Of a stretch of DNA of 64,000 nucleotides, positions 16,440-63,658 are shown in pieces (the stretch's first letter is position 1; each line of letters begins with the position of its first letter). This DNA is from a bacterium. GTDB taxonomy: Bacteria > CLD3 > SB21. The notes beneath the pieces are model-generated. The model made no database searches. It saw only the letters and a program-made list of their open reading frames with translations, and was not told the origin of the DNA. The stretch is taken from NCBI GenBank assembly GCA_013360215.1, contig JABWCP010000004.1:1-64000 (forward strand), given 5' to 3'. Made by a program: the position numbers and the translations under genes.

Positions 16440-17771
16440 ATGTCGGAAACGATTTTAACGCTTATCATCAGTGTATCACTTTTTGCATTGGTATTTATCC
16501 CTTACCTTTGGTACACCAACAAAAAACGAGCGCGTTTCGAAGCCAAAAAAAGGGAAGCTATCACACTGGGGCATGATAAACCGGTAGCCCAGCATCCCTT
16601 GATCGATCAATCCCGCTGTATCGGTTGTGCGGCCTGTGTGATCGCCTGCCCCGAACATGCACTGGGCATGATTGATGGTTTGGCGGAACTCGTTTACCCG
16701 GCCAAATGTGTCGGCCATGGCATTTGTGCCGAAGCGTGTCCGGTGTCCGGCATTCGTATCGTACTCGATCCGACCAAATCCACCACAGAATTACCTTTGT
16801 TAGATGAATCGTTTCAATCCAATATACCTAATCTTTTTTTGATCGGTGAATTAGGCGGTATGGCGCTTATACGAAACGCCATTTTTCAGGGCCGTTCTGT
16901 GATCGAATATATTACCGAAAACGTACGAAATACCGATTCTTCATCCACATCGTCCGATATTCACGATGTCGTCATCGTAGGTGCCGGTCCTGCAGGACTC
17001 AGTGCAGGACTGACGGCCAAAAAGAACGGATTAGACTATGTGCTTCTCGAAAAAGAAACTCAAGCGGGCGGGGCTATTTTGAGTTATCCGCGTCAAAAAC
17101 TTGTAATGACGACATCGGTGGAAATTCCGCTTTACGGATTACTCAAACAGCGTGAGTTATCCAAAGAAACTCTGCTCTCCATGTGGAATGACATTATCCA
17201 AAAAACCGATTTAGCTGTCCGCTGTGATGAAAAAATAGTGAATGTAAACTGTGAAAATAAAATTTTTACCGTGTACACAGCCGCCGGGCATACATACCGG
17301 TCACGCCACGTTGTCTTGGCGCTCGGTCGCCGAGGTACGCCCAAAAAACTACAAATTCCCGGAGAAGATTTGCCAAAAGTGGCATACCAACTTCTTGAAA
17401 CCGTACGCTACAAACATAGCCGTTCACTGGTCGTGGGGGCAGGCGACAGCGCGATCGAAGCCGCACTTGCTTTATCCAAACAAACCGGGGCCGAAGTCAC
17501 TTTGATCAATCGCGGTGGAGATTTTTATCGTGCCAAACCTAAAAATCAAGATCGTATCCGTGACGCGGAACGGGATCAGAAAATAAAAATTTATTACCAA
17601 TCTCATGTTTTACAAATTGATCCGACGTCGGTACTTATTCAGGCATCGAACGGGCCGGTATCGGTAGAAAATGATTTTGTATTTATTTTTGCCGGCGGTG
17701 AAATGCCGACTCCGTTCCTTAAACAAATCGGGATCGAATTCATTCAAAAATCCAAGGTGATCGCAGCATGA
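16440..17771 (+). CDS. Membrane-anchored ferredoxin-domain FAD/NAD(P)H oxidoreductase (TrxB/FNR-like, no CxxC active site)
   Basis: N-terminal TM; CIGCAACVIACP and CVGHGICAEACP; VVIVGAGPAGLSA (FAD); LVVGAGDSAIEAA...INRG (NAD(P)H). Confidence 0.88.
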   Translation: MSETILTLIISVSLFALVFIPYLWYTNKKRARFEAKKREAITLGHDKPVAQHPLIDQSRCIGCAACVIACPEHALGMIDGLAELVYPAKCVGHGICAEACPVSGIRIVLDPTKSTTELPLLDESFQSNIPNLFLIGELGGMALIRNAIFQGRSVIEYITENVRNTDSSSTSSDIHDVVIVGAGPAGLSAGLTAKKNGLDYVLLEKETQAGGAILSYPRQKLVMTTSVEIPLYGLLKQRELSKETLLSMWNDIIQKTDLAVRCDEKIVNVNCENKIFTVYTAAGHTYRSRHVVLALGRRGTPKKLQIPGEDLPKVAYQLLETVRYKHSRSLVVGAGDSAIEAALALSKQTGAEVTLINRGGDFYRAKPKNQDRIRDAERDQKIKIYYQSHVLQIDPTSVLIQASNGPVSVENDFVFIFAGGEMPTPFLKQIGIEFIQKSKVIAA

Positions 17772-18646
17772 ATAAACGAATGCATCGCTGGTACATCCTT
17801 TCGATGACAGTTGCAGGATTCATCGTTGTTTTCAGTATCGGAATTTACGGCTGGGATTATTACGGCACACCGCTTCCTTTGCGACCCGATCATGCACAAC
17901 ACGGATTATTAAGCCCTACCGGTTTTTGGGGCCACGGGATGGGTTTCATCGGTGCATTCCTTATGACATTCGGCGTACTATTGTATTCCTTACGAAAACG
18001 AGCCCGATGGATGGCTGCTGTCGGGCAGATCAAACACATACTTGAACTGCATATTTTTTTGTGCCTTCTCGGACCTGCATTGATCGTGTTTCATTCCGCA
18101 TTCAAGTTTGGTGGTATTATCGGAGTAAGTTTTTGGTGTATGGTGATCGTCGTCGCAAGCGGGGTTATCGGTCGCTATCTATATCTTCAAATTCCAAAAA
18201 CCATTACAGGTCGGGAAATCACACCAATCGAATTGGAAAAGCAAATCACCACACTGCGTGATCGCTTGCAGAAAGATGACGGCATAGAAGAAGATCTTTT
18301 ACAGCGTTTAGACGCGCTTTCCGCCGCATTTACAAAAACCTCGCGACTCTCGATCATTCGTGCTTTTCCGGCAATGATGATACAAAACATACGTCACGAT
18401 GCGCGGGTTCGCACCCTACTTCAGGAGTTTGAAAAAAACCGTAACCCGCTTTCGTCAGACGCCCATACACGACTGACCTTGAAAGCGCATCTGCAACGCC
18501 AATTGGCCAATCTCACGCTTACACAAAAAATGTTTCGGTACTGGCACATGTTTCACCTTCCGTTTGCCGTAGTCATGTTCATCATCATGATAGCTCATAT
18601 AGTGACGGCTTTTTTATTCGGCTACGGATGGATTTTTACGTCATGA
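17768..18646 (+). CDS. Polytopic membrane protein with His residues in TM helices (heme-b / ferric-reductase-like TM domain)
   Basis: About 5 TMs; GHGMGFIG, YSLRKR, LELHIFL, VFHSAF, SGVIGRYLY, WHMFHLP, AHIV; ATGA overlap with the upstream gene. Confidence 0.7.
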   Translation: MNKRMHRWYILSMTVAGFIVVFSIGIYGWDYYGTPLPLRPDHAQHGLLSPTGFWGHGMGFIGAFLMTFGVLLYSLRKRARWMAAVGQIKHILELHIFLCLLGPALIVFHSAFKFGGIIGVSFWCMVIVVASGVIGRYLYLQIPKTITGREITPIELEKQITTLRDRLQKDDGIEEDLLQRLDALSAAFTKTSRLSIIRAFPAMMIQNIRHDARVRTLLQEFEKNRNPLSSDAHTRLTLKAHLQRQLANLTLTQKMFRYWHMFHLPFAVVMFIIMIAHIVTAFLFGYGWIFTS

Positions 18647-18653
18647 GGCGACT

Positions 18654-19226
18654 ATGAATAGTAACGTACATTATTTGCTATGGTTTGTCGCTCTTTTCAC
18701 ATCTCTGATCCTGAGCGCCGTCGCCTTAGACGGATTATTGCATTACCTGAATATGGCGTGGGTAGGACGCTATTTGGGAATCATCGGAACTGTGACTTTA
18801 TTGATTTCCTTTTTGTATAGCGCACGAAAACGAAAATTGGTTAGCCGTGGCAATATGCCGTCATGGCTGCGCTCACATGAATACCTTGCGTGGTGCGGAA
18901 CCATGATGATTCTCGTGCATGGCGGTATTCACTTTAATGCATGGCTACCCTGGTATGCATTGATCGCGATGGTGATCGCTGCTGCAAGCGGACTTATCGG
19001 GAAGCTTCTCATGCGACGGTCACAAGATTTACTGACGGAAAAAACAAAAGATTTACGGCAAATCGGTTTGTCCGATACTGAAATTCGTGAGCGAATTTAC
19101 TGGGATGCATTGACTTTTAGTCTTATGCGTAGATGGCGCTCGGTTCATATACCGGTTACACTTATGTTTGCTATACTTTCAATTTATCACATTATAGCCA
19201 TTCTGATATTTTGGTCATGGCGATGA
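18654..19226 (+). CDS. Paralogous His-containing membrane protein (heme-b-like)
   Basis: LGIIG, YSARKR, LRSHEYL, LVHGGIH, SGLIGK, WRSVHIP, YHII; same motif order as 17768-18646. Confidence 0.7.
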   Translation: MNSNVHYLLWFVALFTSLILSAVALDGLLHYLNMAWVGRYLGIIGTVTLLISFLYSARKRKLVSRGNMPSWLRSHEYLAWCGTMMILVHGGIHFNAWLPWYALIAMVIAAASGLIGKLLMRRSQDLLTEKTKDLRQIGLSDTEIRERIYWDALTFSLMRRWRSVHIPVTLMFAILSIYHIIAILIFWSWR

Positions 19227-20095
19227 AATCAATTTTATTCTTCAGTATTACAGCTGCCGCGGTTGTTTTTATGTTTCTATTATTAAAGGTTCCTCACAGT
19301 ATGATGAATCCCGGCGAACTTACGGAAGCCCATGCCAAACAAGAACACGAATGTTTTTCATGCCATATCCCGTTTCGCGGGGTTTCAGCCGACAAATGTA
19401 TGAGTTGTCATCGCCTTGACCATATCGGTGTGGATTCGCTCAGCTCCGTTTCCTCCATTCTCAAAAAAACCGCTTTCCATGATAAGCTTCAAAAAAATCA
19501 ATGCATTGATTGTCATACCGACCATCAGGGGCGTACTTCTACCAAACCGCGATTTGATCATGCCTTGCTGACGTCCGAAATGGTCGGACAATGCCGAACC
19601 TGCCATGCTTCACCAAATTCACCCATGCACTTGGATTCCACACGAGCTTGTTCCCAATGTCATGTCACGACGCTCTGGAGTCAGGTACACTTTGCACATG
19701 AAAAATTGAACGGAACAACACGAGAAGCTTGTACACCATGCCACTTAAAACCGAACACCTCGCTGCATCAATCTTTTTCGAATGATTGCGGGACGTGCCA
19801 CACCGTCAATGCGTGGACTCCGGCCACATTTGCTCATGAATCGTATTTTAGATTGGACGGCGATCACCAAAGCCCCTGCGTAATATGCCATGTGCAAGAT
19901 AATTTCCAGACCTATACCTGCTATGGTTGTCATGAGCACTCAAAAGAAAAGATTGCTCGCGAGCATCAGAAGGAAGGTATTCGTGATTTTCAGAAATGCG
20001 TTCAATGTCATCGCAGCGCCAATAAACATGACATAGAGAATAAGTCCTCTAACGACAAAAACGCACGTGGAGAGAAAGATCATGATGATGATTAG
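19223..20095 (+). CDS. Membrane-anchored decaheme cytochrome c
   Basis: 10 CxxCH motifs counted; N-terminal hydrophobic helix; start set at the ATGA overlap (MKSILFF). Confidence 0.9.
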   Translation: MKSILFFSITAAAVVFMFLLLKVPHSMMNPGELTEAHAKQEHECFSCHIPFRGVSADKCMSCHRLDHIGVDSLSSVSSILKKTAFHDKLQKNQCIDCHTDHQGRTSTKPRFDHALLTSEMVGQCRTCHASPNSPMHLDSTRACSQCHVTTLWSQVHFAHEKLNGTTREACTPCHLKPNTSLHQSFSNDCGTCHTVNAWTPATFAHESYFRLDGDHQSPCVICHVQDNFQTYTCYGCHEHSKEKIAREHQKEGIRDFQKCVQCHRSANKHDIENKSSNDKNARGEKDHDDD

Positions 20096-20145
20096 TGCAA
20101 ATAAGTTTTCGGCTCGACCCGATCAAAAATAAAATCGAATATCAG

Positions 20146-20730
20146 ATGATACATCATTCAAAACAACTTTGGGTCCTTATCGCCGGACTGGGGTTACTGG
20201 GTATAGCGCTATGGCAAACCAACGAAGCGTCAGACACCATACCGCCTGGAGTATCGCCATCTGCATCATCATTCTCGTGGCAAAATACTCCTCAAAACTC
20301 ACAGGTGAATGTAGAATTCACAAACGACGTTCAAGAACTCAACCGCTACTTGAATCGTCATCCTGACGATACCGAACATTGGATTCAGTTGGGTAATTTA
20401 CTGTTTGATAACGGTAATTTTGCAGATGCCGTAAAACCATACACGGAAGCCTTGCGTTTACAACCTGAAAACCCCGACGTCCGAACCGACCTCGGCGTGT
20501 GTTTATTTAATACCGGCATGAATGATGAAGCCATTCTGCAGTTTGAACGTGCTTTACAATATGCCCCCGACCACATCACGGCGACATTCAATCTGGGAAT
20601 AGTGCACGCGCGCATGGGGCGCACTCAGTCCGCTGTGCAATACTGGAGAAAGACAATACGCTTAGGTCCGGATACCGATATGGGAAAAAAAGCAACGCGT
20701 GCCCTGACCGATGCGGGATATAAACCATAA
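20146..20730 (+). CDS. Membrane-anchored TPR protein (CcmI/CycH-like accessory?)
   Basis: One TM, then TPR repeats (WIQLGNLLFD, VRTDLGVCL, ATFNLGIV). Start uncertain (20095 or 20146). Confidence 0.75.
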   Translation: MIHHSKQLWVLIAGLGLLGIALWQTNEASDTIPPGVSPSASSFSWQNTPQNSQVNVEFTNDVQELNRYLNRHPDDTEHWIQLGNLLFDNGNFADAVKPYTEALRLQPENPDVRTDLGVCLFNTGMNDEAILQFERALQYAPDHITATFNLGIVHARMGRTQSAVQYWRKTIRLGPDTDMGKKATRALTDAGYKP

Positions 20731-20732
20731 AC

Positions 20733-22496
20733 ATGAAACACTTTCTACATACTATATTATCGGTGATGACGGCGTGGTCGCTTCACGCACAGTTTTCTCC
20801 GGGTGATTTGGCTTCGTCGCATAAACAACTCGAAGGCATTCAGCAATGTACGCAATGCCACGACCTCGGCAAAAAAATAGACGACGCACGATGTCTTGAT
20901 TGCCATACCTTGATAAAAACCCGCATCGCAAACAATAAAGGTTTTCACGGTTCGACTGAAACCAAAAACAAAGCCTGCATCGAATGCCATCATGACCACC
21001 TCGGACGAGACTATGCGATGATCCAATGGAAACCATCCCGAGAGAAATTTGACCATAAACAAACCGGATATATCCTCGAAGGAAAACATCAAACGACCCA
21101 ATGTGAAGTTTGCCACAAAGAGGCCTTCATCAAAGATAATGCGGTGCGCGCACGAACCGGCGACGGGTTACTGCTCAACAAAACCTTTTTGGGTTTATCG
21201 CAAGATTGCCGTTCATGCCACTTTGACGAACACCGTGATCAGTTTGACCAATGTTTGAATTGCCACGATTTTAATGATTGGAAAAAATCTTCAGACAAAA
21301 TTTTTGACCACAACAAATCAAAATATCCGCTCACGGGATTGCACACCAAAGTATCCTGTAAAAAATGCCACACTTCTGTTGCCGACCCGCGTCAAAAAGC
21401 CGATCATAAAACAGACGAAACCTACTTCAAATACCGGCCGCTTCAGTTTGCCAATTGTACACCATGCCATGCCGATCCGCATCAAAACCGATTCGGCCAA
21501 GATTGTCAAAAATGCCATTTGACGGTTTCGTGGAAACAAATAAAAAACGCCTTATTTGATCACCGGCAAACGCGTTATCCTCTGGAAGGCCTACACATCA
21601 CAGTGCGCTGCGAAAAATGCCATCAACCGGATACAAAAAAAGCCGCCGTCTATAAAAATATGAATTTTTCTAACTGTACCGATTGCCATACTGACGCGCA
21701 TGCCGGTCAATTAACTCAGCGATCCGATCAAGGCCGTTGCGAAACCTGCCATGATGTCAACGGTTTCCGTCCGTCGCGTTTTACGATCAGCATGCATGCA
21801 ACCGAGAGTTCCTATCCGCTTATCGGCGCTCATGAAAAAACAGATTGTAATAAATGCCATATCAAAGCCAATGCGTCTGAATTTTTACGTCGAACCGGTA
21901 TCCGACCTCGCGTTGACAGCGCGCATGTCATCCTGAAATTCAAAGAAAAAACATGCCAATCGTGCCATATAGATATTCATCGCGGGCAATTTGCAGATAA
22001 ACTAAAAAGTAATGATTGCGACATCTGCCACAAAACCACAACATGGAAAGACATTGTTTTTGATCATCAAAAAAATTCTGATTTCAAATTAATAGGAAAA
22101 CACGAAAAAACACCGTGTGAAAAATGCCATCCTTTGGTAGATGTGGACACGGAGATAAAACGCACATTGTACAAACCGATACCGACATACTGCGAGCACT
22201 GCCACAACGATATTCATGAAGGTCAGTTTGCCGAATACAAAACCATGACGCCTTCGCATCCGAAAACCGATTGCGCTAAGTGCCATTCTAACGACGCTTT
22301 CAAGCCGGCAATTTTTGATCACGAAAAGCAGTCTCAGTTTCCGCTAACCGGCGCTCACATCAAAGTGGAATGCGCCAAATGCCATATTCGTGCACGGATT
22401 ACGTCGGACACACTAAATGTAGTCTACAAACCCATCAGTACCGAGTGCGCGGCATGCCATCCGGATCAACACGAAGGAGTGTTTCAACAACGATGA
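20733..22496 (+). CDS. Exported 20-heme cytochrome c built from repeated three-heme modules
   Basis: 20 CxxCH motifs counted; signal peptide ending SLHA-Q; repeated FDH..T.YPL.G.H..V.CxxCH modules. Confidence 0.92.
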   Translation: MKHFLHTILSVMTAWSLHAQFSPGDLASSHKQLEGIQQCTQCHDLGKKIDDARCLDCHTLIKTRIANNKGFHGSTETKNKACIECHHDHLGRDYAMIQWKPSREKFDHKQTGYILEGKHQTTQCEVCHKEAFIKDNAVRARTGDGLLLNKTFLGLSQDCRSCHFDEHRDQFDQCLNCHDFNDWKKSSDKIFDHNKSKYPLTGLHTKVSCKKCHTSVADPRQKADHKTDETYFKYRPLQFANCTPCHADPHQNRFGQDCQKCHLTVSWKQIKNALFDHRQTRYPLEGLHITVRCEKCHQPDTKKAAVYKNMNFSNCTDCHTDAHAGQLTQRSDQGRCETCHDVNGFRPSRFTISMHATESSYPLIGAHEKTDCNKCHIKANASEFLRRTGIRPRVDSAHVILKFKEKTCQSCHIDIHRGQFADKLKSNDCDICHKTTTWKDIVFDHQKNSDFKLIGKHEKTPCEKCHPLVDVDTEIKRTLYKPIPTYCEHCHNDIHEGQFAEYKTMTPSHPKTDCAKCHSNDAFKPAIFDHEKQSQFPLTGAHIKVECAKCHIRARITSDTLNVVYKPISTECAACHPDQHEGVFQQR

Positions 22497-23248
22497 ACCG
22501 AAGCCTTATCATCGCGGCTGCACTACTCAGTATGGCCGCCTATTTACCGCAACCGGATCCCGAGTATACGGCGTGGACTTACGCACGCCCTGCCGCGGAT
22601 ACACCGTATGTAAAAATACCGCATAAGCCGTTTGACATTCCGTGCGATGCTTGTCACACCACGACGACGTGGAAAACATTAAAATCTAAAATCGAATACG
22701 ACCACACCAAAACAGGGTTTCCGCTTGTCGGCGCCCATCTTCAGACGGCATGCAGCCAATGCCATGGCGGCGGTGTGTTTCGTTCGGCCATTCGCGAATG
22801 TTTCATATGCCATGCCGATCCGCATCAGGCACAACTTGGATTGGAGTGTGAGCGGTGCCACACGGAGTATGCGTGGGCGCCTTCGATTTTTAAACATGAG
22901 GATCAAAATTTATTCATGTTCGGCGCACACAAAGGTCTAGATTGCGCCGGCTGCCATAAAAACCTCATCACGTTTGCAATGCCCAACGTGCAGGAGTGCG
23001 GCGATTGCCATATCCCGCTCGGCGCAACCACCGATCATAATGCGTACAAATCCATCGGCGACTGCATGGCCTGCCATAACATGAACGGCTGGAGTAATTA
23101 TCCGCATGCCGACGAATGGTTTTCTTTGACCGGGCATCATCGCCGAAGCTGCGAGACATGCCACAAGCAGATACCCAACTATACGACCTATACATGCCGG
23201 GACTGTCATCGTTTTGATCATAAAGGGGAAGGGGACGATGATGATTAG
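22493..23248 (+). CDS. Exported nonaheme cytochrome c
   Basis: 9 CxxCH motifs; start at the ATGA overlap (MNRSLIIAAALL); same repeat module. Confidence 0.88.
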   Translation: MNRSLIIAAALLSMAAYLPQPDPEYTAWTYARPAADTPYVKIPHKPFDIPCDACHTTTTWKTLKSKIEYDHTKTGFPLVGAHLQTACSQCHGGGVFRSAIRECFICHADPHQAQLGLECERCHTEYAWAPSIFKHEDQNLFMFGAHKGLDCAGCHKNLITFAMPNVQECGDCHIPLGATTDHNAYKSIGDCMACHNMNGWSNYPHADEWFSLTGHHRRSCETCHKQIPNYTTYTCRDCHRFDHKGEGDDDD

Positions 23249-24539
23249 ATTTTTAAACCGAGTCATCGTTATCATATTAATCGCGTACCTATTTGTAAAA
23301 GACGGCCGTTCGCAATCTCTCACAGGCAACAAAAAGCCTTTTATTGCACGATTTTCTTCCGGATGGAATTATTATTCCCGCGGCGCTTCGCTCAATCCGC
23401 AGCTAAGCGAGTTTACACAGTATGCGATGCTCAATTATCGCACGCTCGATGACAGTAATAGAATTATCTGGCAAATACGTACCGATATTTACCAAAAAGA
23501 CGCCGTAACACAAACTCGTCTGCGAAATCAAAACGAGCCGTTTGATCACCGAACGGTAATTCGTCAAGCCTACGGATCTTATACACTACACGATGGCGAA
23601 GTCAAACTGGGGCGCTTCGTCCCGCTCGGCACCCATACCGACGCTTATCCCATCAATGGTCTCGGCGCCGAAAATACACGTATCACCTCGCGGTGGAGAG
23701 GCTCTGTTTATGGCGGGAAAATTTTTGATGAATACGACAATCGCCCTGAAGGCATCGGCTATAGTACGGGCGGAAGTCTGACGTATGACCAAACCCGGTG
23801 GCAAGCCGGAGCCGGATTGAGCGCTGAACAACTGCGCAATACCCGTCTTACCAAAGCTTATCTTTTCGGTGAATACCGACCTTCCTACACATGGCGCATC
23901 GTATCTAACAATCAATACGTAGTGAACAAAGCGCTGCTCGGCTATTCGCAAAACACCTTGTATTATCGTTTAAACAAAAATCTAAGCACCCGTTTTTTTG
24001 CGGAATACCATGACCGGCGCGCCTACTTTCCTGCGCCAACCGACAGCCTTAGTATGGATCGTTTTTTTAAAACATCGCAGGAATTGATGATCGGCGGTTC
24101 CGTGCGTTACCGGATATTCCAATGGCGCAAAATCGGAATGTTAGAAACAATACCGTCGGTAAAAAAACGACTTGGCCATGACGACCTGACCTACGCGGCG
24201 CTTCAGCTTTTTTATCAAAATTATTTTTTCTGGCGATTCAACCTGAATACCGGATTCAGCTATACGGATAATCAGTGGATTCGCAATTATCGTACCCATA
24301 TTTCGCTTAATCGGGATTTTTTTGCTTCACGTTTGGACGCTTCATTTTCTCTCATCGCTAATACCTATACGTGGAACTCAGCTTCCTCACGCGCCAAACT
24401 TTTGACTACCGTTTCGGCCGACGTCACGTATCGATTTGACGCATCGTGGTATATGTCCGCAGGAATTTATGAAGAAATAGGTAGCGCCACCGATCCCCAT
24501 TCCGGTGTTAATATCCGCATGTTTTATTATCTGCATTGA
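23238..24539 (+). CDS. Predicted outer-membrane beta-barrel (porin-like) protein
   Basis: Signal peptide; alternating hydrophobic/polar strands rich in Tyr/Trp/Phe; C-terminal GVNIRMFYYLH resembles a beta-signal; overlaps the end of the cytochrome gene. Confidence 0.7.
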   Translation: MMIRFLNRVIVIILIAYLFVKDGRSQSLTGNKKPFIARFSSGWNYYSRGASLNPQLSEFTQYAMLNYRTLDDSNRIIWQIRTDIYQKDAVTQTRLRNQNEPFDHRTVIRQAYGSYTLHDGEVKLGRFVPLGTHTDAYPINGLGAENTRITSRWRGSVYGGKIFDEYDNRPEGIGYSTGGSLTYDQTRWQAGAGLSAEQLRNTRLTKAYLFGEYRPSYTWRIVSNNQYVVNKALLGYSQNTLYYRLNKNLSTRFFAEYHDRRAYFPAPTDSLSMDRFFKTSQELMIGGSVRYRIFQWRKIGMLETIPSVKKRLGHDDLTYAALQLFYQNYFFWRFNLNTGFSYTDNQWIRNYRTHISLNRDFFASRLDASFSLIANTYTWNSASSRAKLLTTVSADVTYRFDASWYMSAGIYEEIGSATDPHSGVNIRMFYYLH

Positions 24540-24625
24540 CCCCGTACTTTATAGCATTTTGCTAATACAGCGATAGTTTGGACGTAATAAACGATTTGTA
24601 TTTTTTTCGAAAAGACAAATCTCCT

Positions 24626-25627
24626 ATGGCTGTTGCCGACTTAAACAGGAAAACTATACTCCAAGGCGATATCGCACAATCCGGCATGACGAGCATACTT
24701 TCGCTCATCAAGTTATCGCAAAAATCCGGCACGCTACGTCTCAGGGACGGCGAAAAAAACGCCTCGATCCGGATCGAAAAAAACTATTTCATCGAAGCCT
24801 CCGCACCGGAAGAAATCCTGCTAGGGGAATTTCTTGTGCGCGAAGGTTATCTGACCGAACAAGATTTAGCTAAAACCCTGCCGTTACAAAAGCGCATGCA
24901 CATCCCGTTGGGCCAATTGCTCCAAGGTATGGGATATTTTGGATTGGACGCAAATGCGTTGACCCGGATACTCAATCGGTATTTACGAGAAGTGATTTTT
25001 AGAATTATGAAATGGAATAGAGGCACATTCACTGTGGAAGAAACCGTAAAAAAAGATTTCCCTGTGCGAGAAGAAATCCCGGTGCGCCTTAACATGGATT
25101 TTGTTTTATTGGATACCACCCAACGGCTGGATGAATGGAAACGACTTGCCAGCGGTGTTACGTCGTTGCAATCGGCACTAAAAATCAACCGCCGGGCCAT
25201 CCCTGAAAATGCATCGCTTACATTAAACGCCGATCAACTCACCGTGCTATCGTATGTCAACGGGCGGCGAACGCTTGTGCGCATTCTGGAAAAAATCGGC
25301 CACAACGAAATGTTCTACCTTTCCGTAATAGACGATCTTCTCAAACGCCGCATACTGATCGAACGCCAGGCCGAAGCGATGCGCGTTATCATACCGGGAC
25401 GCATCAAAGCTGATGCTGTAAATCGAAACCGCCAGTTTCCTGGCAAATTTGCGGCTAACCTTTTATATAAAGAAATCGACGGCAAAAAGAACCTTCTTGA
25501 GTTAGCCGATAGTCTTCATTTCGAACTCCCGGATCTATGGGAAAATATTTCCCTGCTGCTCAAAAACGAGGCCGTCGAAATCATCGAAGGCCGCCGAGAG
25601 TTTCACAATCTAAGCGAAGAGATGTAA
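24626..25627 (+). CDS. DUF4388 (PATAN-like) domain protein
   Basis: LQGDI...ILSLIKLSQKSGTLRL, LLGEFLVREGYL, IMKWNRGTF, LLD...RLDEW. Confidence 0.8.
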   Translation: MAVADLNRKTILQGDIAQSGMTSILSLIKLSQKSGTLRLRDGEKNASIRIEKNYFIEASAPEEILLGEFLVREGYLTEQDLAKTLPLQKRMHIPLGQLLQGMGYFGLDANALTRILNRYLREVIFRIMKWNRGTFTVEETVKKDFPVREEIPVRLNMDFVLLDTTQRLDEWKRLASGVTSLQSALKINRRAIPENASLTLNADQLTVLSYVNGRRTLVRILEKIGHNEMFYLSVIDDLLKRRILIERQAEAMRVIIPGRIKADAVNRNRQFPGKFAANLLYKEIDGKKNLLELADSLHFELPDLWENISLLLKNEAVEIIEGRREFHNLSEEM

Positions 25628-29977: not shown

Positions 29978-30028
29978 AAACGATGATTTGAAAATCCTTC
30001 TCCATGGTTAGGTTGGAGATACATGCAG

Positions 30029-30064
30029 TCCCGCGTTTGTTCTTACAGGCGCGGGATTTTTATT
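30029..30064 (+). terminator. Rho-independent terminator
   Basis: tcccgcg...cgcggga stem followed by a T-run. Confidence 0.75.
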
Positions 30065-30073
30065 GTGAATAAA

Positions 30074-30160
30074 TATCACCTTTTTTATGATGACATTCTC
30101 AAGGCGGGTATTTATCTTTTCAAACCCAAGTCATAGCATCAGGAGACACGGTTATGAATT
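30074..30160 (+). repeat. 87-bp direct repeat, left copy (duplicated dinB upstream region, RBS and first codons)
   Basis: Matches 33802-33888 with 3 mismatches. Confidence 0.92.
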
Positions 30161-30181
30161 GATCAAACTAAAAGTCATTGA

Positions 30182-30766
30182 TTATAAGGATTTTAACCTT
30201 TGAATTTCCTTGGCCAACTCAGATTTTTCCCAGTCTGAGTTTACTGAAACTACAGGAAAAGCAGCATTAACAATCTTTACTTCATTCAAACTTTGTTGGA
30301 ACAATCCTAATAGAAAAAAATTCTCTGCCTTTAAAATATGCAAATCAACATGCGTTAGAGAAAGAGTATTTGATTTGGTAAACACCCAAAATGTATCTAT
30401 CGCAAGCGCATCAGAGGCCTTAATACTAGAGTACGCATAATCTTTTTTTGCATTAAGGGCATAAGCCCATCCTGCAAACAAATCTGCATTGACGAGTGAT
30501 TTAGTTGAAGCAATTTGAAAGTATTGAATTGAAAGATTGAGGCAATCGGTTTTCATATATGACCAACATACGCCTATATACGCATCTATTCTTTCCGGCG
30601 ATTTCTCAATTGCATCATTAAACTCCTTAATCGCACGAGAATATTTATTTTTAGAAAAATAAACCCATCCTTGATTCGTTAAATCATCATAACTGTTTTC
30701 AGAATTGCGTGTATTGCAAGCAAGAAATGAAACTACTAATATAAGAAAAAACAAAAAACACTTCAA
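30182..30766 (-). CDS. TPR lipoprotein
   Basis: Lipobox FLAC; TPR-like QGWVYF...AIKEF..AI...PERIDAYIG; TTG start. Confidence 0.75.
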   Translation of the reverse strand: MKCFLFFLILVVSFLACNTRNSENSYDDLTNQGWVYFSKNKYSRAIKEFNDAIEKSPERIDAYIGVCWSYMKTDCLNLSIQYFQIASTKSLVNADLFAGWAYALNAKKDYAYSSIKASDALAIDTFWVFTKSNTLSLTHVDLHILKAENFFLLGLFQQSLNEVKIVNAAFPVVSVNSDWEKSELAKEIQRLKSL

Positions 30767-30786
30767 TTGTTCTCACCCTCCTATTT

Positions 30787-33678
30787 TTATTTAATATACA
30801 TCATTTTTTTCGCTTGAATGAAACCTTCAGATTCAAGTTTATATATATATATTCCAGATGCCATGAATTTTCCTAACGCGTTCTGACCATTCCATGAAAC
30901 AGTATATTTACCAGGCTCATGTATCTTCGACACAAGCGTGGTTATTTCTTGACCTAAAATATTATATATCTTTATTGATATGAAACTTTTGCTTGGTACA
31001 TCATAAGCGATAAATGTCGAAGGATTAAAGGGGTTGGGGTAATTTTGTCTCAAAAAAAAAGTCGATGGTACTTCTGAACCAAGATTTTCTTTATACCCCA
31101 CCTTAAACTTACCTAGTTTTGAAATATTTGCTATCAAAGCATCGTTTGACTTGCTTAATTGACTGGGAATCTGTACCCAACCACCAGGGGTTTCTTGAAA
31201 AATAGCCAATTTTGTTTTTTCTGATAGTTGTTCGGGTTCTAGTAAAATTTCTATTTCTGATGGCTTTTGAAACTTGAATTCTGTGGGCCCATACTCATAT
31301 ACTACTTCTTCTCCATTTTTCTGATAGTTCTGCGACAAAAAGTAATTGTCATCGAAAAACGGCGTTTTGATTATAAGATTTGATTTACTGTTCAATGATT
31401 TAATAGTTTTAAATTCTCCTTTCTTAACTAAGGTGACCCCATAAGTTACAACCTGAGCTGTATCACCTCCTGACGGAGTAAGGGTTTTCACAAAAAAATT
31501 CACCTGCCCAGGCTCACTAAATTTTCCAGAACCTCTAAATATATTTTGTGAGTTATTTACTGGAGTAGAAACAATGGATGATGTATCATTTTGACCCGTC
31601 AACCACATCCGAACGATAGGATTTATCGCCAATTTTGATTCTGCTATAACTGCAATATCAAAGTGTTTTGTTAATACAGGATTCTGATATACAACAATCG
31701 TTGCTTTTGCTGCGATCGCATAAAACGCAGCTGTTGCTTCATTTGAAAAAGCACTTTGATTTCCGAATGTATCTACTGCACTCACATTAAACGTGTATTG
31801 AGTTCCCTTTGATAATTTAGTGTAGTTTCTGACAGTATCCGTACTTGATATTGACGAATCAATTTGACCAAATAGATTTTCTAAAGTTGAACTATATATC
31901 CGATACTTTTTAAAATCTCCTTCTCTACTTACATTCCATTTCAGCAAAATAAAACCATCTCCAGAAGTTGCCTTTAAGTCACTAGGAGGAAGCGGTGGAG
32001 TGCTATCAAACGGGAGGGACTCGACGCTAGTAGAAAAATAGCTAGCATTGTTTGCAGAATCCACAGAAGTAACATAAAATCGATAATTTCTGCCCGGCAC
32101 TAAATTATAAATTGTTTTGGTAATAGTATAAAAAGAGCTTTGCTGAACGCTGTCAATTTGAACAGGCGATGTAAATCCGTTGCCTGTATAGATTCGATAC
32201 TTTAGCACATCGTTTTCTAAGTTCGTTTTCCATGAAAGCAGCACCTTTGAATCTCCAGCACTAGCCGTCAGTTCAACAGGAGCAGACGGAGGCGTAATAT
32301 CGAAATTCACTATCGCGAATTCTCCAAAATTTTTAAGTCCACTAACCATAATATAAGGAGTCCACAAATATGTTATTAACACTCCATCATTCGATAAAAC
32401 ATCTTTCCAAGGACTTTGTGAGTTTTCACGCATAATTACACGCAACCCATTAAAGCTTTCTATACCCGGTAAACCGCTTAAGTCGAAAAGCATGTTATAT
32501 TGACCATTAAAGTCCGAATTGATAACACTCCAGTATTTTGAACTTATCAAATTAATTGTTCCGGGAGGAAGTGAACCAACTATATTTGGAAACGAATCTA
32601 CTTTAAACGTAAAAGCTGATTTTGTACTTTTGTTTTCCGTAACAACGATAGAGACACCGATTGAATCTAGAACTATTGCACCAGTTTTGTATGAAGGTAA
32701 TTCGTTATTCGAAAAATCGGTTACTTTGATTGCTACTTGCGTTCCATCACCAATAGAAAAAGCCGCATTCAGGTTAGCTGTTATTATTAATGGCAACGGG
32801 TTTCCATAGCATCTAGCTTCAATTACAGCAGGATTGTTTGATAAGTCTAATAAGCCTATTTGGTTACGATTTATATTTATTGTTTCTAGATTAGGGCATT
32901 GCGATAAATCCAAATCTGAAAGTTGATTGTCATCGCATTCAATGTATCGAAGATTTAATGCAGAGTCTAAAGTCAACGACTTCAATTGACCTTGTGAACA
33001 AAACAAAAACTCTAATAATGGATTTGAATTAATTACAAGTGTATCAATTCGAGTCCTATAACATTTTACAGTGTTTAAACTTCTGTTGTTTGATATTGAA
33101 AGTCTCGAAATAGGAGTATCAGCACAATTCAAGTGAGTCAACATCAAATTTGAAGATATGTCAATTTCAGAAATAGGGGTTTCAGAAATATAAAGATACC
33201 GTAAAGCGCTATTTTGTTTTACATACAAATTTTGTAGCCCATTACTAAAACAAAAAAGCTCTTCCAAAAGGGGTTTATCCGAAAGATCAAGACTTGATAT
33301 TTGGTTGCTGTTACACCACAAATATTTTAGTTTTGTTAAACCCGTTAAATTAATTGAAGTGATTCCATTGTAACCACAATGCACATATTCTAAAGAAGTG
33401 TTTGAAGATAAATCTAAGTTTGTGAGATAATTCGAACTACAATTAATACTATCTAACGACGTAAAAGCCTCAATTCCGCTTAGATCAAAAATACCTTGTC
33501 CCGATACATCTAAATGTTTAATCAATAAGACTGCTTCAGGGTTTATAATCAAATTATTAACATCAAAGTTAACTTCGTATTTGTTTTGAAGAACAGACCT
33601 AAATTGAGGATCATTAACAGTTATCTGAGCGATAGAAAGTTTGCAGAAAAGACAAAACAACAAACATAAACATTTCAT
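30787..33678 (-). CDS. Secreted leucine-rich-repeat + fibronectin III protein with C-terminal T9SS/FlgD-Ig-like sorting domain
   Basis: LxxLxCxxNxLxxLDL repeats; two DxTPPxxP FN3 domains; C-terminal QNYPNPFNPST...MASGIYIYKL. Confidence 0.88.
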   Translation of the reverse strand: MKCLCLLFCLFCKLSIAQITVNDPQFRSVLQNKYEVNFDVNNLIINPEAVLLIKHLDVSGQGIFDLSGIEAFTSLDSINCSSNYLTNLDLSSNTSLEYVHCGYNGITSINLTGLTKLKYLWCNSNQISSLDLSDKPLLEELFCFSNGLQNLYVKQNSALRYLYISETPISEIDISSNLMLTHLNCADTPISRLSISNNRSLNTVKCYRTRIDTLVINSNPLLEFLFCSQGQLKSLTLDSALNLRYIECDDNQLSDLDLSQCPNLETININRNQIGLLDLSNNPAVIEARCYGNPLPLIITANLNAAFSIGDGTQVAIKVTDFSNNELPSYKTGAIVLDSIGVSIVVTENKSTKSAFTFKVDSFPNIVGSLPPGTINLISSKYWSVINSDFNGQYNMLFDLSGLPGIESFNGLRVIMRENSQSPWKDVLSNDGVLITYLWTPYIMVSGLKNFGEFAIVNFDITPPSAPVELTASAGDSKVLLSWKTNLENDVLKYRIYTGNGFTSPVQIDSVQQSSFYTITKTIYNLVPGRNYRFYVTSVDSANNASYFSTSVESLPFDSTPPLPPSDLKATSGDGFILLKWNVSREGDFKKYRIYSSTLENLFGQIDSSISSTDTVRNYTKLSKGTQYTFNVSAVDTFGNQSAFSNEATAAFYAIAAKATIVVYQNPVLTKHFDIAVIAESKLAINPIVRMWLTGQNDTSSIVSTPVNNSQNIFRGSGKFSEPGQVNFFVKTLTPSGGDTAQVVTYGVTLVKKGEFKTIKSLNSKSNLIIKTPFFDDNYFLSQNYQKNGEEVVYEYGPTEFKFQKPSEIEILLEPEQLSEKTKLAIFQETPGGWVQIPSQLSKSNDALIANISKLGKFKVGYKENLGSEVPSTFFLRQNYPNPFNPSTFIAYDVPSKSFISIKIYNILGQEITTLVSKIHEPGKYTVSWNGQNALGKFMASGIYIYKLESEGFIQAKKMMYIK

Positions 33679-33801
33679 CTCAATTTCCCTTTTGATATAA
33701 AAAACACCAACGATGTTTTAAATATATATTCTCAATAATTTTTAATCAACATATTTGAATTGCAACTTCATTATTAACTATTCAAAATAGTATGATGAGT
33801 T

Positions 33802-33888
33802 TATCACCTTTTTTATGATGACATTCTCAAGACGGGTATTTATCTTTTCAAACCCAAGTCACAGCATCAGGAGACACGGTAATGAATT
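33802..33888 (+). repeat. 87-bp direct repeat, right copy
   Basis: Matches 30074-30160; includes the AGGAG RBS and ATG of the DinB-family gene. Confidence 0.92.
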
Positions 33889-34406
33889 TTTCTCTGACTC
33901 AATCCATCGAAATCCTCGAACGTACCCCGATGATTCTGACAGCGTGGCTTGACGGATTATCACCGGAATGGACTTCGTCCAATGAGGGCCCCGATACATG
34001 GTCAGCTTACGACATCGTCGGGCACCTGATTCACGGAGAAAAAACCGACTGGATCACACGTGCAGAAATCATTTTATCCGATTTACCTGATAAAACATTC
34101 AAACCATTTGACCGTTTTGCACAATTTGAAGACAGCAAAGATAAAACCCTTCGGCAACTGTTAACCGCATTCACCGAGCTGCGCGCGAAAAATATTAAAA
34201 AACTCCAATCGCTGAATATTTCAGAACAAGATATGAACCGCACCGGTCTTCATCCCGCGTTTGGCACGGTCACCTTGGTGCAGCTCCTTTCGACGTGGGC
34301 GGTGCACGATCTCGATCACATCAGTCAGATCGCGCGCGTTTTGGCCAAGCGCTACAAAGACGATACCGGGCCGTGGGTTGCCTATCTCAAAATCTTGCGG
34401 CAATAA
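33882..34406 (+). CDS. DinB/YfiT-like metal-dependent protein
   Basis: WSAYDIVGHLIHGE, GLHPAFG, WAVHDLDHISQI. Confidence 0.9.
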   Translation: MNFSLTQSIEILERTPMILTAWLDGLSPEWTSSNEGPDTWSAYDIVGHLIHGEKTDWITRAEIILSDLPDKTFKPFDRFAQFEDSKDKTLRQLLTAFTELRAKNIKKLQSLNISEQDMNRTGLHPAFGTVTLVQLLSTWAVHDLDHISQIARVLAKRYKDDTGPWVAYLKILRQ

Positions 34407-62125: not shown

Positions 62126-63658
62126 TTAAGATCTCCATTTACGACCGTCTTTATTCAATAACTTATCCGCCGCTTCCGGTCCCCAAGAACCCGCAGCATA
62201 ATTTGGAAACTCCGCTTTATTGTTTTTCCAATGTTCTAAAACCGGCATTACGAGCCACCACGCTACCTCGACCATATCTTTACGCATAAAAAGCGTTGCG
62301 TCGCCGCGCATACAGTCGAGAATCAATCTTTGATAGGCTTCGGCAATTTCCACCTGAAACGCTTCTTTATAATTAAAATGCATATCTACCGACTGGAGCT
62401 GCATTTCCGGACCCGGTACTTTGGCTTCAAAACTCATCGTAATACTTTCATCCGGCTGGATTTGTATCACCAGTACATTGGGCGCCACATCATCGGCCGC
62501 CGTCTGAGTAAACATCATATGCGGTGTTCGTTTAAAAAAGATCGCTATCTCCGAATCACGTCGAGGCATTCTTTTTCCAGTCCGCAAATAAAACGGTACG
62601 CCCGCCCAGCGCCAATTATCCACATAAAATTTTGCTGCAACATAGGTTTCGGTATTTGATTGAGGATCCACTTTGGGCTCGGTGCGATAGCCGGGAACCG
62701 GTTTGCCATTGATCTGTCCGGCTCCGTATTGCCCGCGCACAAAATAATCATTCACCTGATCAGGTTTTACGGGGCGAATGGCGCGCATGACTTTGACGCG
62801 CTCGTCACGTACAGCATTAGCATCAAATGTAGTAGGTGGCTCCATCGCAACGAGCGCCATGACTTGAAGCACATGATTTTGTATCATATCTCTCAAAGCG
62901 CCGGCATTGTCATAATAACCGCCCCGATCTTCGACTCCCAAAGCTTCCGCCGCTGTTATTTGTATATGGTCTATATAATTGCGATTCCACAAAGGTTCAA
63001 AAATCCCGTTCGCAAAACGAAACGCCAATACGTTTTGAACGGTCTCTTTTCCGAGGTAGTGATCTATACGATAGACCTGCCATTCTTCGAAAGCTTTAGC
63101 CACTTCCGCATTGAGTGCACGCGCCGATTCGAGATCACGGCCAAATGGTTTTTCGATAATAATGCGTCGCCAGTAATTACCTCCGCGCACCTGTGACATA
63201 TTGTGTTCAGCCAACTTCTGACATATCGTAGCAAATACCGTAGGCGGCGTCGCGAGATAATAGATACGGTTATCATTACAGGCACGCGTCGCGCAGTTGT
63301 TTTTGATCAGCGAATCCATAGTTTGATACAATGCATTCTCATCAAAACCTCCGCCGACATAAAAGGAGTTTTGAACAAATTCATTCACGATTTTCGGATA
63401 TACGGCATCGGATTTGGCAAATTCACGCAATGCAGCGCTTACCATTTCGCGATATGCTTCGCTGCTCATCTCCGGTTTGCCGCATCCTATTACTGTGAAT
63501 TTCTCAGGAAGCAAACCTTCTTTGGCACTATTAAAAAGCGCCGGTAAAATTTTACGTCGCGCCAGATCACCGGAACCGCCGAAGATAATCACCGAACATG
63601 TGCCGGCACGCGCATCGGATTTGACCTGCCGCAAAGCTTCTGTGACGTGAGCTGCCAT
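62126..63658 (-). CDS. zwf: Glucose-6-phosphate 1-dehydrogenase
   Basis: IFGGSGDLARRK, IEKPFG, YRIDHYLGKE, RWAGVPFYLRTGK. Confidence 0.98.
   Translation of the reverse strand: MAAHVTEALRQVKSDARAGTCSVIIFGGSGDLARRKILPALFNSAKEGLLPEKFTVIGCGKPEMSSEAYREMVSAALREFAKSDAVYPKIVNEFVQNSFYVGGGFDENALYQTMDSLIKNNCATRACNDNRIYYLATPPTVFATICQKLAEHNMSQVRGGNYWRRIIIEKPFGRDLESARALNAEVAKAFEEWQVYRIDHYLGKETVQNVLAFRFANGIFEPLWNRNYIDHIQITAAEALGVEDRGGYYDNAGALRDMIQNHVLQVMALVAMEPPTTFDANAVRDERVKVMRAIRPVKPDQVNDYFVRGQYGAGQINGKPVPGYRTEPKVDPQSNTETYVAAKFYVDNWRWAGVPFYLRTGKRMPRRDSEIAIFFKRTPHMMFTQTAADDVAPNVLVIQIQPDESITMSFEAKVPGPEMQLQSVDMHFNYKEAFQVEIAEAYQRLILDCMRGDATLFMRKDMVEVAWWLVMPVLEHWKNNKAEFPNYAAGSWGPEAADKLLNKDGRKWRS

Follow-up and report, generated by a model that had tools for sequence, protein, structure and literature searches.

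The subject of this work is an operon of eight genes (g1 to g8) at positions 16440-24539 on the forward strand of a 64,000-nucleotide stretch of bacterial DNA (GenBank assembly GCA_013360215.1, contig JABWCP010000004.1, positions 1 to 64,000; hereafter the window). In order, the genes encode a membrane-anchored flavo-ferredoxin (g1), two related membrane proteins (g2 and g3), a decaheme cytochrome (g4), a TPR protein (g5), exported cytochromes with 20 and 9 hemes (g6 and g7) and a predicted outer-membrane barrel (g8). The operon is real and conserved, and it suggests an outward electron valve that would carry electrons from NADPH to the cell surface, spending proton-motive force rather than conserving it; we put the probability of this reading at roughly 0.55. 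Part of the design is known, since the histidine signature of the membrane protein and clusters of cytochromes, membrane protein and redox protein (with or without a porin) were published in 2017 (He et al., PMC5566968), and an earlier sequence-only reading of this DNA overstated the novelty on that account. What is known is the four-His signature and a layout like that of the published cluster type PCC3; what seems to be new is the version fed by a flavoprotein, its conduit function being predicted from sequence.

If such interpretation is correct, g1, tethered at the inner membrane face, would oxidise NAD(P)H (probably NADPH) at its FAD, as its domains suggest, and send single electrons through its two Fe-S clusters. 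Motifs, gene adjacency and gene fusions suggest that these electrons would enter the cytoplasmic heme b of g2 (at His95 and His263) and exit from its periplasmic heme b (at His109 and His277), as they do in NOX, FRE and MsrQ, with no quinone needed. The 20-heme g6, of fixed length, would dock on g2 and span the periplasm, and the 9-heme g7 would go into the g8 barrel and meet an external acceptor there, be it Fe(III), humics or another cell. Through the pair g3-g4 there could be a second, optional outlet, ending at a decaheme that faces the periplasm, and g5 may assist maturation. By textbook potentials, electrons moving to the outside are driven by the membrane potential, and a proton stays behind in the cell. 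Proton-motive force would therefore be spent, and the likely role would be the shedding of surplus reductant or the reduction of an outside substrate, not respiration.

The eight open reading frames (ORFs) are co-oriented, and the distances between them, from g1 to g8, are -4, 7, -4, 50, 2, -4 and -11 bases (computed with the starts of g4, g5, g7 and g8 at 19223, 20146, 22493 and 23238), so the overlapping start and stop codons described in the sequence-only reading are there, as are its 39 c-type hemes, counted as CxxCH motifs (10 in g4, 20 in g6 and 9 in g7). The count in g6 is the highest among all ORFs of the host genome, which is 3.72 Mb long, 100% complete and one of 20 genomes examined from its class. 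Near-identical DNA comes mainly from activated-sludge runs.

The predicted cytoplasmic electron input of the conduit is g1 (16440..17771, + strand; 443 amino acids, aa). A hydrophobic helix at its N-terminus, followed by a basic stretch, would anchor it in the membrane, and behind it stand a ferredoxin domain with two Fe-S motifs and an FAD/NAD(P)H domain. Pfam matches to Fer4 and Pyr_redox_3 (E 2e-45) uphold the earlier description of a 2x[Fe-S]/FAD/NAD(P)H enzyme, with one refinement: the second Fe-S motif reads CxxHxxCxxxCP, with His in place of one Cys, and is kept in 120 of 120 homologues. His93 is invariant in 28 alignment rows. Among solved structures, Bdr (bacillithiol disulfide reductase) is the closest relative, over its residues 6-264 of 328 (E 4.6e-30); g1 stays under the family cut-offs of the TrxR and Bdr models (173 of 340 bits for TIGR04018, 89 of 343 for TIGR01292). 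All 13 weak matches (E 0.3-1.6) of residues ~120-172 are to glutathione-reductase-fold enzymes and fall on their C-terminal FAD segment, and the FAD motif of C-terminal type stands before GxGxxG in 115 of 120 homologues. Because the FAD segment absent from the C-terminus sits in front instead, the domain is apparently a circularly permuted fold of the Bdr/YpdA-thioredoxin-reductase kind. No redox CxxC was found in the NAD(P)H domain of g1, so the Fe-S clusters are the probable exit for electrons. S/H-Y-R follows the second Rossmann strand in 101 of the 120 homologues, which we take to suggest the use of NADPH; the window's g1 has N-R-G.

Of 8000 candidates scored, 7972 passed 1e-60, so g1 belongs to a large family, whose labels include Zixibacteria, Calditrichota and Acidobacteria. 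Homologues longer than 550 aa make up 44 of the 120 (e.g., P0298 and P0231; two are labelled Acidobacteria), and in the 12 that were inspected the C-terminus holds an additional NAD(P)H-binding domain, which is degenerate. The 610-aa forms, considered as possible fusions, were ruled out as such, being duplications of the NAD(P)H domain. A g1-type flavo-ferredoxin with a fused four-heme N-terminal part occurs at 7816-10047 of contig C3 of genome G404 (L158).

That g1 belongs with the rest of the conduit is suggested by its company in other genomes. The cross-genome sample consisted of 401 genomes, 383 of them outside the host's class. The g1 profile matched 30 of these, and 24 were kept after six were dropped for absence of the ferredoxin part or the C-terminus. 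A relative of the g2 membrane protein is present in 23 of the 24, against a background of 43 in 383, and the two genes lie no more than 10 kb apart in 21 and are split by contig ends in two. Twenty g1-type loci outside the class were fetched, of which 16 have multiheme cytochromes and a barrel, three are cut by contig ends and one has no cytochrome. Within the class, the same 14 of 20 genomes have both g1 and full-length g2. In a second phylum, whose proteins are 45-62% identical to named ones, the membrane protein occurs in 40 of 121 genomes, and 20 of the 40 loci were fetched: 18 of the 19 strong ones hold membrane protein, 20-heme cytochrome, variable cytochrome, barrel and flavoprotein, the last encoded at the 3′ end in 15 loci and at the 5′ end in three, whilst the remaining strong locus is cut by a contig end and the twentieth is a different, PCC4-like cluster. 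The sequence-only reading had tied both the barrel and the flavoprotein to the cytochromes, and these two surveys (18/19 and 16/20) agree with it. They are joined by natural fusions, in which homologues of g1 and g2 form one ORF with multihemes and a barrel downstream (L119, and L120 with 753 aa), so that a pyridine-nucleotide input on the cytoplasmic side, as proposed earlier, is well supported by genomics. An earlier search for longer forms of g2, a weak test, had returned none, and the fusions were found later in genomes; P0030 and P0134, two further candidate g1-g2 fusions, were read as frameshifted run-ons and left out of the counts. Identity matrices of g1 and g2 correlate at 0.93, which shared ancestry explains and which is not used as evidence.

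The same cassette is found on a plasmid of Emticicia oligotrophica DSM 17448 (NC_018749.1), where ccsA, membrane protein, flavoprotein, cytochromes with 23 and 40 hemes and a barrel stand together. Decay is seen in one locus of contig G003:C78 (L034), with a 100-aa remnant of the membrane protein, an intact TPR gene and a 72-aa barrel fragment, and with neither flavoprotein nor cytochromes. In loci without g1, the membrane protein is often beside, or fused to, other cytoplasmic redox modules: an FNR-type protein with 2Fe-2S in Alteromonas, a Pyr_redox_2 flavoprotein in L140, and fusions of cNMP-like and 4Fe-4S domains. A distant relative of the membrane protein accompanies a 7-heme cytochrome and an FNR + 2Fe-2S protein on plasmids of Alteromonas macleodii (NZ_OX335041.1; L081) and Methylophaga (L082), one of these clusters standing directly 5′ of a NiFe-hydrogenase cluster and the other between metal-resistance and ccm genes. 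Another relative lies, with a 16-heme cytochrome, directly 3′ of an apparent molybdoenzyme operon (Nar/EBDH-like, judged from sequence starts; L145, G471:C72).

The membrane protein g2 (17768..18646, + strand; 292 aa) is predicted to have five helices in the inner membrane, an SGxxG motif and a long cytoplasmic helical hairpin, its structure model reaching a pLDDT of 95. It carries two H-x13-H pairs, His95/His109 and His263/His277, and these four His are kept in 95-96 of 96 alignment rows; the remaining His are not conserved. Its first motif has Ile in place of the Trp found in 86 of 96 relatives. Lys and Arg are biased such that the N-terminus, the loop between TM2 and TM3 and the hairpin fall on the inner side, which, together with the model, would put His95 and His263 on the cytoplasmic side and His109 and His277 on the periplasmic side. 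In this arrangement g2 by itself would be a complete transmembrane wire with two b hemes. Weak Pfam matches among the 96 relatives (38 to DUF4405, 21 to Ferric_reduct and 12 to Ni_hydr_CYTB) fall without exception in membrane families of heme-b type or related ones; g2 itself has no match to PF01794, to which the best of the 21 weak matches of its relatives has an E of 1.5e-4. A search of the PDB with the g2 profile gave no sequence match, a Foldseek search with the model returned nothing at E <= 0.001, and an Atlas search gave unnamed clusters only.

Downstream of it, g3 (18654..19226, + strand; 190 aa) is a short paralogue with both W-x3-H-x13-H motifs and SGxxG. The two proteins are distant paralogues (26% identity over 121 aa, E 3e-7), each with two H-x13-H pairs, which bears out the earlier description of a pair of His-rich paralogues. 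Their coupling in a heme-b heterodimer, also proposed earlier, was rejected: g3 orthologues are present in 4 of 20 class genomes as opposed to 14 of 20 for g1 and full-length g2, each protein has its own four His, and in genome G008 the genes g3 and g4 are located between g1 and g2, a position unlike that in the window. With a full four-His set, each of g2 and g3 could act as a wire alone. The membrane-anchored decaheme cytochrome g4 (19223..20095, + strand; 290 aa) follows g3 in G008, just as it does in the window, and would be an accessory partner of it; by gene content, g3 and g4 seem to form an accessory module. Their base composition does not point to a recent transfer. Nor is g4 a NapC/NrfH protein (TIGR03153, 23 bits as opposed to a cut-off of 134); it shares an N-terminal PGxL..H module with g6.

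The predicted periplasm-spanning segment is g6 (20733..22496, + strand; 587 aa), an exported 20-heme cytochrome with a signal-like N-terminus, six H-x4-6-[FY]xLxGxH repeats and 29.4 aa per heme. It is followed by g7 (22493..23248, + strand; 251 aa), an exported 9-heme cytochrome that would enter the g8 barrel. Among 146 ORFs with at least seven hemes, in the window and the analysed loci, 72 are of the PGxL..H class, 53 of a PH class and 21 of neither. The first class, which includes g4 and g6, has exactly 20 hemes in 48 of its members and usually adjoins the membrane protein or the flavoprotein, whereas the second, which includes g7, is variable in length (9 to 76 hemes) and usually adjoins the barrel gene. 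This difference in neighbours between the fixed and the variable class suggests that electrons may pass in the order g2, g6, g7, g8. Single cytochromes with 67, 70 and 76 CxxCH occur in operons of the same type (L094, L099 and L120). A lipobox Cys is absent in both g6 and g7, so the operon encodes no surface-anchored lipoprotein cytochrome. The cytochromes do not look like MtrA, in agreement with the sequence-only reading: the DmsE/MtrA model TIGR03508 gives 21, 29 and 13 bits for g4, g6 and g7 against a cut-off of 192, and a sequence search of the PDB found no relative of g6.

Between the cytochromes lies g5 (20146..20730, + strand, with an alternative GTG start at 20095; ~194 aa), a membrane-tethered TPR protein resembling CcmH/CycH (PF23914, 50.1 bits, cut-off 42) and a probable helper in cytochrome maturation or assembly. 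It is present in most class loci and was not detected in the 19 second-phylum loci. Elsewhere in the host genome there are two PF01578 cytochrome c assembly genes, of CcmF and CcmC size, which makes heme attachment possible.

The last gene, g8 (23238..24539, + strand; 433 aa), had been called a beta-barrel from its letters, and its structure model (pLDDT 80.7) is indeed that of a barrel, with 22 predicted strands by DSSP and no plug. The best structural matches are barrels of TonB-dependent receptors (Z 20.0, rmsd 3.4, 348 aligned residues), and many unrelated barrels are listed along with the MtrB chain (Z 15.8). By sequence, g8 matches no family of Pfam or NCBIfam at E <= 0.1. The g8 family is seen in the window and in seven loci of the host's order, and elsewhere its place is taken by a barrel of ~540 aa, of which g8 may be a shortened distant relative: profile-profile comparison gives 96.8% over 370 columns, with 0.08% for a reversed-profile control. 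The long-barrel HMM did not match g8 in hmmsearch, and single long-barrel sequences score 0.3-46% against the g8 profile, so this homology rests on one profile-profile result. Both barrel modules stand in tandem in three loci (L027, L029 and L030).

Characterised porin-cytochrome systems of Gram-negative bacteria are, as a rule, depicted with the quinone pool as their electron source. The operon shares with MtrCAB, MtoAB and PioAB the logic of a barrel joined to multihemes, and differs from them in that g8 has no MtrB/PioB-family match, no decaheme of the DmsE/MtrA family is encoded, and neither CymA/NapC nor a lipoprotein cytochrome is present. By analogy, it may work like PCC3 in its layout and like NOX and MsrQ in its input. 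The likeness to PCC3 was drawn from published descriptions. As described there, PCC3 has a five-helix membrane protein of ~300 aa with SGxxG and two W-x3-H-x13-H motifs, as g2 does; a repeat-rich periplasmic multiheme of ~21-27 hemes, the 20 of g6 being one below this range; a second repeat cytochrome of variable length; and an outer-membrane barrel, published examples ranging from 22 to 42 strands and g8 having a modelled 22. Residues per heme, 28-29 in the operon, likewise resemble PCC3, where they range from 22 to 39. The extracellular multiheme of PCC3 has 10-85 hemes and is rich in T/S/A/G, whilst g7 has nine hemes, 28% of T+S+A+G and no lipobox. The main difference is the membrane-anchored flavo-ferredoxin, a conserved fifth core gene that is sometimes fused to the membrane protein. 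The function of PCC3 is unverified (10.1101/2025.02.27.639646 and the Gallionellaceae survey PMC9900912).

Other published clusters come close in different ways. The entry for Leptothrix cholodnii SP-6 in Table S6 of He et al. lists proteins of 288 aa with 10 hemes, 192 aa and 412 aa, with a porin in the cluster, which in length and heme count is close to g4, g3 and g1 (290 aa with 10 hemes, 190 aa and 443 aa); it shows no 20- or 9-heme proteins and no second membrane protein. PCC4, as outlined in the same source, has a porin, three multihemes, a membrane protein of the same signature and nearby redox and Fe-S genes, one of which was annotated once as fused to the membrane protein (PMC5566968), but its multihemes carry 4, 5 and 10 hemes, unlike the 10, 20 and 9 of the operon, which falls outside PCC4 on this point. 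In PCC4-like loci (L102, L148 and L152), matches to the g2 profile are distant (E about 1e-24 to 1e-28). Likeness to MsrQ-Fre, NOX, FRE and STEAP lies in the paired His on helices 3 and 5 and in the passage of electrons from a cytoplasmic NAD(P)H flavoprotein across the membrane (PMC12525009; PMC8238504), and the conserved basic cytoplasmic loop of g2 (Y73, R76, K77) recalls R77/R78 of MsrQ. Unlike them, g2 has no PF01794 or structural match, the input seems to be a permuted thioredoxin-reductase fold with Fe-S clusters, and the output would be a multiheme wire with a barrel. In the openly available literature (subscription papers lie outside this coverage) no proposal of an NAD(P)H-flavoprotein input for such clusters was found, a search for 'HX13H' with multiheme and porin returned He et al. 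alone, and a term search of the accessible text of a 2026 review (PMC13741234) gave no mention of PCC3, PCC4 or NADPH.

Several observations weigh against the NADPH valve. The fold searches with g2 (Foldseek and VIA) gave no NOX, FRE or MsrQ structure, which does not mean that its fold is different; the top VIA match, at Z 10.0, is an unrelated helical bundle, no chain of these three families is listed, and the best heme-b structural match is weak (E. coli CybB, Z 7.9, rmsd 3.3, 133 aligned residues). Of the 43 genomes outside the class that have the membrane protein, 20 gave no full-length g1-type match; one locus has membrane protein and cytochromes with no flavoprotein alongside (L139), another has g1 and membrane protein with no cytochrome (L136), and G404 has a g1-type protein and no membrane-protein match. 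Related genomes are not independent samples, and the conservation counts are therefore patterns, not statistics. With no lipoprotein cytochrome, contact with the surface depends on the predicted insertion of g7 into g8. Finally, He et al. likened the membrane-protein signature of PCC3 and PCC4 to the ferric reductase domain and proposed for it two b hemes and a quinone-active role (PMC5566968, accessible text). [quoted passage not shown] A quinone link is part of the published model for PCC3 and PCC4, PCC3 as described there has four genes and no flavoprotein, MsrQ binds ubiquinone (PMC12525009), loci such as L139 do without a neighbouring flavoprotein, and 12 of the 96 g2 relatives have weak cytochrome b561 matches. 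Even so, we hold this explanation to be rather unlikely, given the tight linkage of g1 and the g1-g2 fusions, the repeated recruitment of other cytoplasmic redox modules, and the candidates for the quinol side that the host already has (a NapC-domain hexaheme and a 13-heme cytochrome b fusion). MsrQ itself, a membrane protein of ferric-reductase type, is reduced from NADH via Fre, and arguments have been made against quinol as its donor (PMC12525009).

Two further explanations were considered. Electrons might stop in the periplasm or in the barrel lumen, the 39 hemes storing charge like a capacitor or supplying reductant, either to enzymes of the periplasm or to small soluble substrates, with the barrel as a channel for assembly or entry rather than a conductor. 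The lack of a lipobox in g6 and g7 and the mere nine hemes of g7 would fit, and porin-less clusters exist, both published (He et al., Table S6) and among our loci (L140, L147 and the Alteromonas and Methylophaga plasmids). Such an ending is improbable, however, where the barrel stands alongside long cytochromes as regularly as the two surveys indicate (18/19 and 16/20); the modelled barrel without plug leaves a lumen to fill, and the constant 20 hemes of one cytochrome contrast with the 9 to 76 of the one adjacent to the barrel, as would be expected if the latter could grow freely outside the cell. Least probable, and in our opinion very unlikely, is a wire running inwards, with g1 as a ferredoxin-NADP+ reductase making NADPH from an external donor of low potential. 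It is true that g1 resembles ferredoxin-NADP reductases of thioredoxin-reductase fold (3ab1, E 3e-15) and that PCC3 and PCC4 are described in Fe(II) oxidisers. Reducing NADP+ (~-0.32 V) against the membrane potential of an energised cell would, however, require a donor near -0.45 to -0.5 V (an estimate from textbook values); such donors are rare, and the near-identical DNA comes from activated-sludge runs. The sequence-only reading regarded the direction as unreadable from sequence; this requirement and the membrane potential would nevertheless favour outward flow on thermodynamic grounds, in line with the NADPH valve.

Apart from the operon, the ORF layout of the host genome indicates an alternative-complex-III-like and oxidase cluster and NrfAH-like genes. 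A fusion of a 13-heme cytochrome with a b561-type domain adjoins the NapC-domain hexaheme (G000:C32:218538-222284), and these proteins are candidates for electron export from the quinol side. At G000:C36:79550-83730 there are a 5-heme lipoprotein-like protein, a 483-aa protein without family match and a 12-heme cytochrome, possibly a second porin-cytochrome set, and at G000:C38:37239-42381 an HmcC/HybB-like NrfD protein, a ferredoxin subunit and a 13-heme cytochrome, followed by a sensor-kinase-like gene with one CxxCH. In the window itself, 38 bases past g8, a DUF4388 protein is encoded (24578-25627, + strand) with a borderline MshE-type c-di-GMP-binding motif (35 bits, cut-off 38); its gene was not found adjoining the operon in class relatives. 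A low-GC island at 30001-34000 (0.34 as opposed to ~0.45) encodes a 963-aa secreted-type protein with LRR and fibronectin-III repeats. Glucose-6-phosphate dehydrogenase, a source of NADPH, is encoded at 62126-63658 (- strand), 38 kb from the operon, and its presence on the same contig is probably a coincidence.

A scan of the operon for promoters and terminators was no better than chance, and consensus boxes for Fur, FNR, CRP and Rex showed no consistent excess over shuffles 5′ of g1 in 10 loci, the lowest single p being ~0.04 out of 40 tests. RNA runs gave low-depth scattered contigs across the operon and its flanks, possibly derived from DNA, and no expression is inferred from them.

More widely, the NADPH-fed conduit could be a third way, widespread and bypassing the quinones, in which Gram-negative bacteria perform extracellular electron transfer: with the membrane potential as the driving force, electrons from NADPH would be wired across both membranes at or below ~-0.3 V. 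This broader proposal is tentative, and we regard it as possible rather than probable. The 20-heme protein would then set a constant distance across the periplasm, like a ruler, whilst the cytochrome beside the barrel would form a tip that can be lengthened, from 9 to 76 hemes. With full-length g1-type matches in 24 of the 383 sampled genomes outside the class, the design is no rarity. At the window's locus the new elements are the short barrel with its modelled 22 strands, the minimal 9-heme tip and the optional second outlet. The plasmid cassette of E. oligotrophica, with its own maturation gene, offers a direct experimental handle in a cultured strain, and the conduit would supply a compact module linking cell metabolism to electrodes. 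The reading of metagenomes would change as well, such clusters being now usually scored as iron respiration or oxidation. If this is true, the electrons leaving through an NAD(P)H-coupled conduit would be much more strongly reducing, and the system would serve as a redox valve, not as a respiratory chain; minerals, electrodes or partner microbes could then receive low-potential electrons, a delivery of which menaquinol-fed systems of the MtrCAB type are not directly capable.

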